The notes: generated by a model from the sequence alone, not told the origin. Positions 1 to 2,984 are shown, counted from the first letter of the stretch. The stretch is 11,437 nt of DNA from Thermoplasmatota archaeon (GCA_965234725.1 CBDDUX010000097.1:1-11437); one strand, 5' to 3'. Made by a program: numbers and translations.

Positions 1-10
1 TTGATCTAAA

Positions 11-50
11 GAGCCGTTAGGCTCGAGCATTCCGTAGGAATGCTTTTTTT
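11..50 (+). terminator. Two adjacent hairpins followed by a T-run; likely the 3' end or terminator of a + strand transcript entering from upstream of the window
   Basis: GAGCC-GTTA-GGCTC (11-24), then AGCATTCC-GTA-GGAATGCT (26-44), running into a T tract ending at 50. Confidence 0.6.
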
Positions 51-147
51 GTGATATATTTCACCATGGATCTCAAAAGAAGGAACCTATTCAGGGACAG
101 GAACTTATTGTATCCAAATTCAAATCTTTCAACATTAATCATCAAAA

Positions 148-201
148 TTATGCAGACACTCCAAAATGGAACCATTTCCTATTCATCAGTTCCCAGACCA
201 T
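148..201 (-). pseudogene. Displaced, diverged duplicate of the last 16 codons plus stop of the P-type ATPase gene
   Basis: Minus strand reads (M)VWELMNRKWFHFGVSA*, versus the ATPase C-terminus VWERINRKWFHFGVTA*. 13/16 aa identical and 37/51 nt identical by manual alignment; most differences are synonymous. Confidence 0.85.
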
Positions 202-342
202 CGACCAAAAATAATATCATAGGAATCTCAACCGTTTTTGGTCTGGCCAATGATGTTATATTGATTACAATGTGAACGGATAAACCTCATTCACGCTGTT
301 ACACCGAAGTGAAACCATTTGCGGTTTATCCGTTCCCAGACC
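189..342. repeat. 11-bp direct repeat GTTCCCAGACC (189-199 and 332-342) with internal inverted repeats; att-like scar
   Basis: Exact direct repeat at the point where the duplicated ATPase tail begins. Perfect 13-bp inverted repeat GAACGGATAAACC (274-286) / GGTTTATCCGTTC (323-335). 9-bp inverted repeat GACCAAAAA (203-211) / TTTTTGGTC (235-243). Confidence 0.7.
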
Positions 343-2984
343 TCCACAACGATCAGACCGAAGATACTGACAACAAGGACCCAGGTCCACTCTATCAATC
401 CCAAGGCTTCTGTACCGAAGACTTCCTGAAGGAATGGAACATAGATCACCGGAACCATCAGCAGAACTGCAAGAGCGATCGCTCCCAACAGTTTTTTATT
501 CGAGAACCAACCGATCTCTGCCATTGTGTGTGTTGTAGATCTTGTAGCAATGGCAGTCCACATCTGGAAGAAGATCATGGTTGTCAAAGCCATGGTCCTT
601 GACAGTTCGATGGACTCTTCCAGGTAGTCATGATAGTACCAGAAGACCCCGAGAGTACCAATTGTGATGATTCCAGCACTCACCAGGATCGAGACTATCA
701 TGTCCTTGGTAATGGCGGACTCCTTCGGGTTCCGCGGTTTTCTCTTCATCAGGTCCTTCTCCTTGGGTTCGGTAACAAGGGCCAGTGCAGGGAAGGAATC
801 GGTCACCAGGTTCATCCATAATATCTGCAAGGCAATGAGAGGAAGCTCCCAACCGACAATGATCGCTGCCAGCATAACCATGACCTCCCCCATGTTGCAG
901 GATAGAAGGAACTGTATTACCTTCCTTATGTTATCGTAAATGGATCGTCCTTCTTCAACTGCTGATACAATGGATGCGAAATTGTCATCAGTGATGATCA
1001 TATCCGAGGCTTCTTTCGAAACATCTGTTCCGGTGATCCCCATTGCAACCCCTATATCAGCCGTCTTCAGGGACGGAGCATCGTTCACGCCATCTCCGGT
1101 CATGGCAACGATCTCACCTTGCTTCTTCAGTTCCTTGACAATTCTCACTTTATGTTCCGGAGAGGCCCTTGCGAATACCGAGACCTTTCGGATCGTTCTT
1201 GCGAATTCCTTCACTCCCATCCCGTCCAGGTCCCTGCAGTTGATGGATTGACCGCTCTTTCTGATTATCCCGATCTCCTTTCCTATGGCAGCTGCGGTCA
1301 ACCGGTGATCCCCAGTGATCATGATCGGTCTTATCCCGGCCAGCTTTGCAGTATGGACCGCCTCTTTTGCTTCACCTCTAACCTTATCCCTGATACCGAC
1401 AAGTCCCAGGAACACCATCCTGTCTTCCATTCTTCCCTCTTTCGAAAATGCGAATCCCATGGTCCTGTAACCATTCTTTGCCATGGATTCTGTCAGTGTC
1501 AGAATTTCGTTCATTCTTTCAGGTGTTAGGATATCAACATCATTTCCGTTGTACTCCCTATTACAGATTTTCAGAACTGATTCAGGAGCACCTTTTGTAT
1601 AACCTACCAACTTCCCTTTCACATCGTGAAGAGTGGACATCATTTTTCTTTCGGCATCGAATGGGAGCTCTTTCTCACGAGGATCTTCCTTTCTCCAACC
1701 TGTGAATGAAAATCCAGCCTTTTCAGCCATTACTATGAGGGCTCCCTCGGTGGTATCACCGAGGACCTTCCATCCATCATCATTCACCAGAGAAGCATCC
1801 GAACACAATATTGAAGCTTTGAAAATGTGCTCGAGAGGAACCGGAAAATCATATTGCTCCTTTCCGTTCGAAAGGATCCTTCCCTTGGGTTCGTATCCGG
1901 TCCCTGTGACCTGATAGCTTCTTTCGGAGATGTGGATCATATCAGCGGTCATGGCTCCTGTGGTCAAGGTTCCTGTTTTGTCAGTACATATCACAGTTGC
2001 ACTGCCAAGTGTCTCCACCACGGGGAGCTTCCTGATGATAACGTTCTTACCTGCCATCACCCTCAAACCCACAGCAAGTGCTATGGTAACGACAGCGGGC
2101 AATCCTTCGGGGATCGCAGCTACTGCAAGGGAAACTGCAGTCTCGAACAGTTCTACCGCTATCTCGAAGGAGAGGTTGTCCCACTCCCTCCAGATCTCCA
2201 GACCAAACATCAATACACAAATACCCAGAACAAGAACACCGAGGAACTTTCCCAGCTTCTTCAATCTTTTCTGAAGTGGCGTATCGGTCCTGGGAACCTC
2301 CTGGATCATTCCCGCTATCTTTCCTATCTCCGTATCCATCCCGGTACCTGTAACTACAGCTCGCCCTCTCCCAGTCTCTATGGTAGTGGTCATGTAGGCC
2401 ATGTTTTTTCTTTCTGCAAGTGGAGCTTCTTTTCCCAATTTACCTGTCGATTTCTCTACAGACATAGATTCCCCGGTAAGGGCTGCCTCATTGATCCTCA
2501 GTCCATAAGCCTCGATCAGTCTCACATCGGCGGGTATCCTCATCCCGGATTCAAGGTGAAGAATATCCCCTGGGACAAGGTTTCTCGCATCTACCTCTTT
2601 TCTCTTTCCATTCCTTATAACAGCGGCTTTTGGGGAGGACATCTTCTTGAGCTTCTCTATGGCATCTTCCGCCTTCTCTTCCTGAACGAAGCCAATAATG
2701 GCATTGATCACAACGATCGCAGCGATCACTATCCAATCGATGGATCTCGGTTCCAGAACGAATGTGATCACAGCTGCGATTAAAAGTACTATGATCAAAA
2801 CATCCGTGAATTGTCTGAGGAACTTGACCCAGACAGGGGTCTTTTTACCTTTTTCAAGTTCATTTGGGCCGAATTTTTCCAATCTTGAAATTGCCTCTTC
2901 ATCTGAAAGACCCTCGGGAGATACCATAAGCCCCTCCATCAAATCCTCTTTGTGAAGTTGGTAGGCATCTCCCTGTTTCATCAT
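291..2984 (-). CDS. Cation-transporting P-type ATPase, type IIA (Ca2+-ATPase-like)
   Basis: TGES actuator motif, AIPEGLP (M4), DKTGTLT phosphorylation site, KGAPE, MITGD, GDGVNDAP hinge, SCNMGE (M5), LWMNLVTD (M6). The ORF track starts at TTG 2993. In-frame ATGs at 2990, 2984 and 2981; a TTTTTAAC TATA-like box about 25 nt upstream favours 2984 or 2981. Confidence 0.96.
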   Translation of the reverse strand: MMKQGDAYQLHKEDLMEGLMVSPEGLSDEEAISRLEKFGPNELEKGKKTPVWVKFLRQFTDVLIIVLLIAAVITFVLEPRSIDWIVIAAIVVINAIIGFVQEEKAEDAIEKLKKMSSPKAAVIRNGKRKEVDARNLVPGDILHLESGMRIPADVRLIEAYGLRINEAALTGESMSVEKSTGKLGKEAPLAERKNMAYMTTTIETGRGRAVVTGTGMDTEIGKIAGMIQEVPRTDTPLQKRLKKLGKFLGVLVLGICVLMFGLEIWREWDNLSFEIAVELFETAVSLAVAAIPEGLPAVVTIALAVGLRVMAGKNVIIRKLPVVETLGSATVICTDKTGTLTTGAMTADMIHISERSYQVTGTGYEPKGRILSNGKEQYDFPVPLEHIFKASILCSDASLVNDDGWKVLGDTTEGALIVMAEKAGFSFTGWRKEDPREKELPFDAERKMMSTLHDVKGKLVGYTKGAPESVLKICNREYNGNDVDILTPERMNEILTLTESMAKNGYRTMGFAFSKEGRMEDRMVFLGLVGIRDKVRGEAKEAVHTAKLAGIRPIMITGDHRLTAAAIGKEIGIIRKSGQSINCRDLDGMGVKEFARTIRKVSVFARASPEHKVRIVKELKKQGEIVAMTGDGVNDAPSLKTADIGVAMGITGTDVSKEASDMIITDDNFASIVSAVEEGRSIYDNIRKVIQFLLSCNMGEVMVMLAAIIVGWELPLIALQILWMNLVTDSFPALALVTEPKEKDLMKRKPRNPKESAITKDMIVSILVSAGIITIGTLGVFWYYHDYLEESIELSRTMALTTMIFFQMWTAIATRSTTHTMAEIGWFSNKKLLGAIALAVLLMVPVIYVPFLQEVFGTEALGLIEWTWVLVVSIFGLIVVEVWERINRKWFHFGVTA

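Follow-up and report, generated by a model that had tools for sequence, protein, structure and literature searches.

The window analysed here, a stretch of 11,437 nucleotides, corresponds to the first 11,437 bases of contig C97 in its own assembly, G000 (3,535,829 bases, 114 contigs, 97.65% complete). Its minus strand carries at positions 291-2993 a gene for a P-type ATPase (900 aa from the first TTG) of type IIA, resembling the PMR1/SERCA Ca2+ pumps. The product scored 735 bits with NCBIfam TIGR01522 and 694 bits with TIGR01116, both slightly below the equivalog cut-offs, and lay far over the cut-off of TIGR01494 (P-type ATPase). The reading frame is intact up to the conserved C-terminus, whose closest public match shares 96% of its amino acids. 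Searches with this C-terminus returned mostly distant bacterial homologues, with one close locus among genome contigs and four among metagenome contigs. The gene-attached end, tail 1, occupies 291-341 on the minus strand and consists of 16 codons and a TGA stop (VWERINRKWFHFGVTA*). As the earlier note had claimed, these last 16 ATPase codons recur 143 bp downstream on the same strand: translation of the minus strand revealed a second copy, tail 2 (VWELMNRKWFHFGVSA*, 16 codons and TAA), at 148-198, outside any long ORF. Direct comparison of the two tails confirmed the reported similarity of 37/51 nt and 13/16 aa together with an exact 11-nt match, GGTCTGGGAAC. The two copies of this 11-mer, presumed to be the crossover region and hereafter called the core, stand at the tail starts on the minus strand (copy 1 at 332-342 and copy 2 at 189-199) and are 143 nt apart.

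In the frame of tail 2, a stop codon is found 6 codons upstream. When the whole assembly was scanned in six frames for 16-aa windows resembling the tail, only the 16/16 and the 13/16 copies were recovered; no third copy was present in the 3,535,829 bases, the next best hits being two windows at 8/16. The two-tail arrangement was also found in the assemblies G004 (same genus, 92% nucleotide identity), G003 (same genus, 79%) and G016 (another genus). All genomes of the sample are metagenome-assembled, and the sequencing runs were examined as contigs. Among these, contigs from other studies bridge the two-tail locus, contig X2 over 189-342 with 0 differences and contig X8 over 79-369 with 9 differences. 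The recurrence of the structure in three further assemblies and in bridging contigs of two other studies indicates that it is not an assembly artefact.

The contig end at which the window begins has features of its own. Positions 1-52 form a 52-nt double hairpin (GAGCC..GGCTC and AGCATTCC..GGAATGCT) with a TTTTTTT run. The same sequence is found at 12 other contig ends of G000 or a few bases from them, and one more, near-identical copy lies about 22 nt in. In the likely source run, its contig depth adds up to about 120 times the depth of the remaining window, and the assembly breaks at this high-copy repeat. Contig C10 starts (1-62) with the reverse complement of window 44-105 (98%), and C97 therefore probably runs on into C10 past this repeat. 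The plus-strand translation of 66-83, MDLKRR, resembles the beginning of the gene that comes after the distal tail in G004, but lies on the opposite strand.

One 143-nt repeat period, 199-341 on the minus strand, was taken as the mini-element as integrated; it is made up of tail 1, an inverted repeat (IR), a linker and a hairpin (H1). The spacer between the tails is 92 nt long and no ORF of at least 60 aa lies within 199-290. The IR (GGTTTATCCGTTC, 274-286, minus strand) begins 4 nt past the stop codon and is a perfect 13-nt inverted complement of 323-335, i.e. of codons 3-7 of tail 1 (GAACGGATAAACC, minus strand), which form the 5' arm of the tail/IR hairpin. The IR pairs with tail 1 and not with tail 2, for which the match is 9/13 in G000. 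In G003 the two arms are GAACGGATCAATC with GATTGATCCGTTC, two compensatory changes relative to G000, and G016 has another pair, AGCAGGTCAA with TTGACCTGCT. In three lineages, the ATPase IR matches tail 1 without a mismatch. The conserved linker motif ACATTGTAATC (263-273, minus strand) follows the IR directly on its 3' side and corresponds in the alignment to a family consensus TTGYAAT. The hairpin H1 (196-248, minus strand) has the outer stem GGCC..GGTC, whose 3' foot ends at the start of the second core. Single-stranded DNA folding of 188-345 places the tail/IR hairpin beside H1 with the core between them, at z values of -4.5 for the minus strand and -3.9 for the plus strand. No terminal inverted repeats were seen by eye at the unit ends. 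A search of window 1-600 against Rfam 15 yielded no family at the gathering score (best 23.1 bits against a gathering score of 38).

The earlier note had read the spacer of about 90 nt as a minimal element, and this reading was borne out by its homology to units that each stand beside a duplicated tRNA 3' end, an arrangement characteristic of integration into gene 3' ends. Window 191-284 matches units located behind tRNA-Tyr in G004 and G003, where this tRNA gene contains an intron, behind tRNA-Pro(CGG) in G018 and behind tRNA-Leu(CAG) in G013; with the unit behind tRNA-Tyr, the ATPase spacer shares 78% identity over 87 nt (E 3e-13). At these sites, the final 14-17 nt of the tRNA recur 2-3 times at a spacing of about 137-143 nt, and a homologue of the ATPase spacer precedes each repeated end. 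The units belong to a structured, non-coding and lineage-specific repeat family of about 125-145 nt, normally found in tandem behind tRNA genes, in which the tRNA 3' end appears as an inverted complement at the start of each unit and as a copy at its close.

A covariance model, R1, was built from ten units in the ATPase-like orientation. It recognised 191-272 of the window at 91.5 bits and gave 198 matches (E <= 0.01), distributed over 24 of the 24 genomes of the family. A search pattern for H1 (ACCAAAAA, about 23 nt, TTTTTGGT), calibrated on G000, occurred 14 times in G000, 16 times in G003 and 13 times in G004, and it was present in 15 of the 23 other genomes of the family. Elsewhere in the phylum it was detected in 13 of 277 genomes, approximately the level of the reversed-pattern control. 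As far as searched, the repeats thus appear confined to one family of uncultured Thermoplasmatota, and no description of such elements was found in the open-access full-text literature searched. When the H1 loci of relatives were fetched, 16/17 lay within 500 nt downstream of a tRNA gene. A set of 51 further units at 40 loci was found behind tRNA-Pro, Tyr, Val, Ile, Arg(CCT), Met and Ser(CGA), and their repeated tRNA ends all open with TCCGG or TCTGG. No second protein-gene target was present among these 51 units; five cases without a tRNA, inspected by eye, were decayed tRNA-end copies or unclear. The ATPase gene is consequently the sole protein-coding target seen, in 4 genomes and 2 genera.

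Both hairpins behave across the family as conserved structures. In the tRNA-linked units, the segment directly 5' of TTGYAAT complements the upstream copy of the tRNA end. Among the 51 further units, the 40 with an upstream target copy of at least 12 nt were assayed for this pairing: a perfect IR of at least 7 nt was present in 35/40, compared with 2/40 in the reversed control and a mean of 4.5 nt in shuffled sequences. For H1, 16 pairs of which 6 are compensatory were counted in ten units. In 63 aligned units, 94.8% of the cells are paired against 76.4% after shuffling, changes on both sides occur at 13/16 pairs, and sliding of the partner abolishes the signal. The outer stem GGCC/GGTC has compensatory variants, e.g. 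GACA/TGTC, and ends exactly at the start of the repeated target sequence, while the linker between IR and H1 keeps a constant length across targets in the unit alignment.

In G000 itself, copies of the last 14 nt were found downstream of 15 of the 52 tRNAs called by ARAGORN, a set including a few calls with giant "introns" that are surely spurious; upstream copies were found for 0/52. The arrays hold 1-5 copies, often with a period of 143-165 nt (e.g. C20:24650-25491, C109:20600-21188, C14:51250-51656, and on C2 and C5). The end of tRNA-Arg(GCG) recurs at +128, 271, 414, 557 and 759, and that of tRNA-Gly(CCC) at +165, 330 and 491. At least three unit types are present in this genome, one of which has a T-arm complement and another no inverted complement. 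Many G000 contigs end at or next to tRNA genes, probably because the tRNA-linked arrays break the assembly; such units would explain the assembly breaks of metagenome-assembled genomes at tRNA genes in this group. The tRNA-Tyr array counts one unit in G000 (L323, contig C8), two in G004 (L022, contig C21) and two in G003 (L023, contig C10), and in all three species the most distal copy of the tRNA end is the same variant, ending GCCGGGCGGGATCA. A shared distal variant combined with a varying number of units points to addition at the tRNA-proximal side, which suggests, from the sequences compared, that new units join next to the tRNA.

Larger cassettes also occur at tRNA genes of G000. Three islands at tRNA-Ala (L026, C28:3000-14500; L364, C38:68000-83322; L365, on C12) consist of cassettes with one gene apiece in an integron-like layout, every cassette being bordered by a copy of the 3' end of tRNA-Ala. 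Their cargo comprises large surface or secreted proteins (FG-GAP, lectin/peptidase C1, PKD, DOMON, SBBP/fn3) together with a methyltransferase and a protein of 754 aa that matches no Pfam family; the cassettes were found to contain no recombinase. At L027 (C75:14800-18483), two copies of the tRNA-Ser(AGA) 3' end enclose an AbiEi/AbiEii toxin-antitoxin pair.

The comparison of G000 with G004 discriminates between the two tails. No difference was found in 179-355, while the flanks show 5-18 differences per 100 nt along the ATPase gene on one side and 12 differing positions in 117-178 on the other. At 10% divergence, the chance of an identical tract of 177 nt is 0.9^177 = 8e-9. The tract takes in 20 nt at the start of tail 2 (the core and 9 nt more), the spacer, all of tail 1 and 14 nt of the gene. 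Two crossovers located in the cores would be expected to delimit this interval. Tail 1 is thus identical (51/51) in the two species, although the gene upstream is about 10% diverged. An identity tract inside diverged flanks indicates that tail 1 and the spacer form a young mobile unit in older host DNA. Since the H1 loop varies freely among family members in the alignment, constraint on every base of the tract is unlikely, and a recent arrival or exchange of the unit would be the better explanation. A short import by homologous recombination could in principle yield the tract, though its ends coincide with those of the element. The itemised differences in contigs from other runs (118 and 151 in X8, 369-378 in X6) all lie outside the tract, which is only suggestive, as 7 of the 9 differences in X8 and 1 of the 6 in X6 are not itemised.

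The distal tails of G000 and G004 differ at 6 nt, corresponding to four synonymous codon changes and one TGG to TTC replacement (W to F), and F is a residue that also occurs in natural tails. Such mostly synonymous differences imply that the divergence took place while the sequence was still coding. In G016, the distal tail (..FFHLGAGT) is nearer than the attached one to the single tail of its congener G007 (..FFHLGAST). These comparisons support the view that 291-341 would have arrived with the element and that 148-198 would be the displaced host tail. Both statements had been made in the earlier note, and each has stood: the ATPase end lies in a segment identical in G004 within diverged flanks, and the distal part of 148-198 has diverged from its G004 counterpart, mostly synonymously.

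Empty sites, for which the earlier note had proposed to look among single-tail relatives, are present among the ATPase loci scanned. In the scan of 17 loci (L003-L017 less L011, which had no tail match; L001 and L002 are the window itself), two tails were seen in G004, G003 and G016 only and the rest are single; at least 12 relatives with an ATPase ortholog have a single tail, and so does each of the four closest metagenome loci. In genus g4, the flanks are too diverged for an alignment of occupied and empty sites. The same note had also named an integrase-bearing island between the two ATPase tails as possible support, and none was found in any genome. The tail motif WE..N...FH.G is kept in all single-tail relatives, a conservation which explains why only an element supplying a replacement tail would be tolerated.

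A tree of the units was constructed with the start of the target copy trimmed off and is, given the short sequences, indicative only. In this tree, the ATPase units of genus g1 are mutual closest relatives (79-100%) and group next with the tRNA-Tyr units of g1 (69-76% identity, local support 0.79-0.86), and the G016 unit groups weakly with tRNA-Tyr units (support 0.46-0.62). TCTGGGA is common to TCTGGGAGCC, the target in tRNA-Tyr, and to the codons ..GTC TGG GAA C.. of the ATPase. The simplest history compatible with these sequences would be the acquisition of the ATPase target by a tRNA-Tyr-specific lineage. At the nucleotide level, the attached tail of G000 and G004 has its best match in the distal tail of G003 (45/51), and the best match of their distal tails is the tail attached to the G003 gene (40/51); tails at the same position agree at 37/51. 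G003 therefore has the two tail types the other way round from G000/G004, yet in each case the IR pairs perfectly with the attached tail. Tail swap and re-matching of the IR are not predicted by plain conservative recombination at the core; the swap could have come about via differing crossover points in the 51-nt homology, gene conversion or hairpin-templated repair. In G016, the only exact match between the tails is CTGGGA, which is short for a crossover core.

The genome was searched for enzymes that could move the units. Seven matches to the tyrosine recombinases (PF00589), including a XerA-like one, were obtained in G000, none of them linked to units; no integrase was found inside the arrays and cassettes examined, or beside the ATPase locus of G004 and G003 in their ORF lists, part of which was run against Pfam. 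Two paralogous modules of G000 (C102:6778-8345 and C44:20242-21807) have the classic layout of a tRNA-adjacent integrase, with a tRNA-Thr gene, a tyrosine integrase of 320 aa and a coiled-coil protein of about 180-210 aa, and no mini-element motif was detected in either. No match to the Y1 transposases (PF01797) was obtained in G000 (97.65% complete), the control genomes being positive. The only reverse transcriptase match is on contig C47. Cas1 has two matches, neither linked to units: one within a 565-aa ORF on C106, the other a 408-aa ORF at a contig start (C59:3-2456), at most about 2.3 kb downstream of tRNA-Leu(CAG) in AT-rich DNA. The C59 locus may be a casposon at a tRNA 3' end, and no family module stands beside it. 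The search of mobile-element and virus sequences proposed in the earlier note, carried out with the unit pattern, produced at least 118 matches in viral contigs; 118 were checked for stem flanks above chance level and a plausible context and were chance-like, and no viral or plasmid partner emerged. Likewise, no joint skipping the 143 nt, a product that note had suggested looking for, and no excised circle or empty allele appeared in the contigs of four runs, where rare excised forms may escape notice. No autonomous element cognate to the units was found among the G000 cassettes, the tRNA-Thr modules and the viral contigs.

Taken together, these results make it quite probable that 199-341 is one miniature, gene-less, site-specific integrative element of a kind whose usual sites are tRNA 3' ends, where it forms tandem arrays. 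Of the three options offered in the earlier note, a deleted island, a tiny non-autonomous element and an allele-replacement scar, the second fits best. Each element carries a copy of the 3' end of its target, so that the target gene stays intact. An inverted complement directly after this copy forms a hairpin with it and is followed by a short conserved linker and by H1, whose foot abuts the crossover core. The sequences themselves show the family, this architecture, the association with targets, the empty sites and the youth of tail 1 and spacer compared with their flanks. A sub-lineage derived from the tRNA-Tyr elements would use the ATPase codons GAG-GTC-TGG-GAA as its core, because of their likeness to the T-stem/acceptor sequence TCTGGGAGCC of tRNA-Tyr, and would bring the last 16 ATPase codons in place of the tRNA end. 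Integration would then have fused the gene to the element tail (291-341) and shifted the native tail to 148-198.

The proposed steps of the reaction do not all deserve the same confidence. That the element moves by conservative recombination at the core, catalysed by a trans-acting recombinase, is in our estimate an evenly balanced proposition. We are more hesitant about the tail/IR and H1 hairpins being the recognised form, possibly as folded single-stranded DNA, which we advance as a tentative idea. A little more speculative still is the proposal that the IR is a programmable specificity determinant, a folded strand or guide presenting a duplex copy of the target. A host-supplied recombinase of relaxed specificity would in that case integrate the element wherever the target sequence occurs, and retargeting, from tRNA-Tyr to the ATPase or between tails A and B, would need a new target copy and a matching IR only.

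Alternative origins were weighed against the miniature element. The locus could be what deletion has left of a large, integrase-bearing island, a scar of about 90 nt of att arms, and G000 does hold kilobase cassettes bounded by tRNA 3'-end copies at tRNA-Ala and tRNA-Ser together with seven tyrosine-recombinase matches. The same deletion would however have had to occur repeatedly, as about 200 units of near-equal length and order stand at many tRNAs of 24 genomes with a linker of the same length between IR and H1 across targets. No genome has a large insert between two ATPase tails, and two species with about 10% divergence share an identical unit; we regard such a scar as improbable. To the same small extent we credit the mini-element with a non-conservative or strand-specific route, catalysed by a Cas1-type casposase or by an HUH or other single-strand enzyme with the IR as guide. 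The 14-17 nt of the repeated tRNA ends are near the size of casposon duplications, one of the two Cas1 matches of G000 lies near tRNA-Leu(CAG), and a target complement beside a hairpin recalls the guide-based choice of IS200/IS605. Against this route, the ATPase repeats differ at 14/51 nt and the proximal one moves with the element, which excludes a simple target-site duplication; moreover, PF01797 had no match in G000, no terminal inverted repeats were seen at the unit ends and no family module stands next to the Cas1 locus.

The units are also strongly structured and always downstream of genes, and the copy number of their arrays could be altered by unequal crossing-over. These properties would suit a host structural or regulatory 3' element, acting on transcript ends or replication, with the tails produced by slippage or unequal crossing-over. 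We consider this very improbable, because slippage would give identical tails and not tails with synonymous differences, and because homologous units occur at unrelated loci, each with its matching target copy and IR. The identity tract lies within diverged flanks, and most relatives have no unit at the ATPase. In the tRNA-Tyr arrays, a T-run stands between tRNA and IR, so that the tRNA transcript would not fold into the hairpin. A leftover of a tandem ATPase paralog lost by deletion and a chimeric assembly were both rejected and retain hardly any credibility. Other P-type ATPase-like matches exist in G000 (C61) and the window begins at a contig end, but only 16 codons recur, with a stop 6 codons upstream, the DNA preceding tail 2 is the repeat unit, and four assemblies and contigs of two other studies agree on the structure.

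If the miniature-element reading is correct, what is new is a gene-less element of 143 nt that has apparently moved recently, a whole family of such units at tRNA genes across an uncultured archaeal lineage, and one branch re-aimed at a protein-coding gene with the conserved C-terminus of the protein kept. The systematic pairing of an internal segment with the target copy suggests that the choice of target is encoded in the element's own sequence. The family would then offer a compact natural system in which to study, and possibly from which to borrow, sequence-programmed site-specific integration in archaea; should the IR be programmable, this would be a naturally programmable, protein-free integration cassette. 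Together with the kilobase cassettes at tRNA-Ala, the tRNA-linked arrays would in that event amount to an integron-like gene capture anchored on tRNA genes.

The 143-nt unit can be set beside several known systems. The IS200/IS605 elements choose their targets through a guide, a 4-nt complement beside a hairpin. The unit is alike in that a short internal sequence by a hairpin complements the target just upstream, and differs in that the complement is 7-16 nt long and a full target copy is carried, and in that no Y1 transposase was found in G000. Casposons, which occur in archaea including Thermoplasmatota, make target duplications of 14-15 nt and are found at tRNA 3' ends. The units share with them the archaeal host, the tRNA 3' ends and the short repeated target segments, whereas they have neither Cas1, PolB nor terminal inverted repeats, and the ATPase repeats are non-identical, one of them being element-borne. 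A gene 3' end repeated shortly downstream is also reminiscent of the VR/TR pair of diversity-generating retroelements. This candidate was rejected: the mismatches involve all bases and are not adenine-specific, the sole reverse transcriptase is on contig C47, and the spacer belongs to the tRNA-linked repeat family.

In integrated CTX-phi/IMEX and in integron attC sites, the folded single strand is the recombination substrate. The 143-nt unit presents the same order of target copy, loop, inverted copy, body and second target copy. The crossover region is likewise in a hairpin and the units stand in tandem arrays; non-coding cassettes are known among integrons as well. The traits of a folded-hairpin att site are found in the unit, namely a 13-bp tail/IR stem, an H1 foot at the core, an IR that covaries with the target and covariation in H1. 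It differs by its targets, tRNA and ATPase 3' ends instead of dif or attI, and by a target copy that changes with each target. By analogy, the order of the unit would thus parallel CTX-phi and integrons, with a candidate single-stranded substrate. The CIMEs of streptococci, which follow a MITE-like logic, are non-autonomous, are bounded by att-type repeats and accrete in tandem at one site. The unit resembles them by its att-type repeats, the lack of recombination genes, a mobilisation presumably in trans and tandem accretion; it is one to two orders of magnitude smaller, archaeal and highly structured.

The closest frame remains that of the tyrosine-integrase elements, since integration into a gene 3' end with a replacement end is textbook biology. 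In the account given by PMC9897764 (citing Reiter 1989 and Williams 2002), the integration target of these elements is the 3' end of a tRNA or protein gene, for which attP supplies a replacement. With reference to that account, the 143-nt unit is alike in its direct repeats of the target 3' end, the intact gene, the distal native end, the empty sites and the usual tRNA targets, and it differs in having no integrase or genes, in its tandem arrays of near-constant length and in its inverted complement. The 143-nt unit is a new, very small and structured variant of the elements that restore the 3' end of their target.
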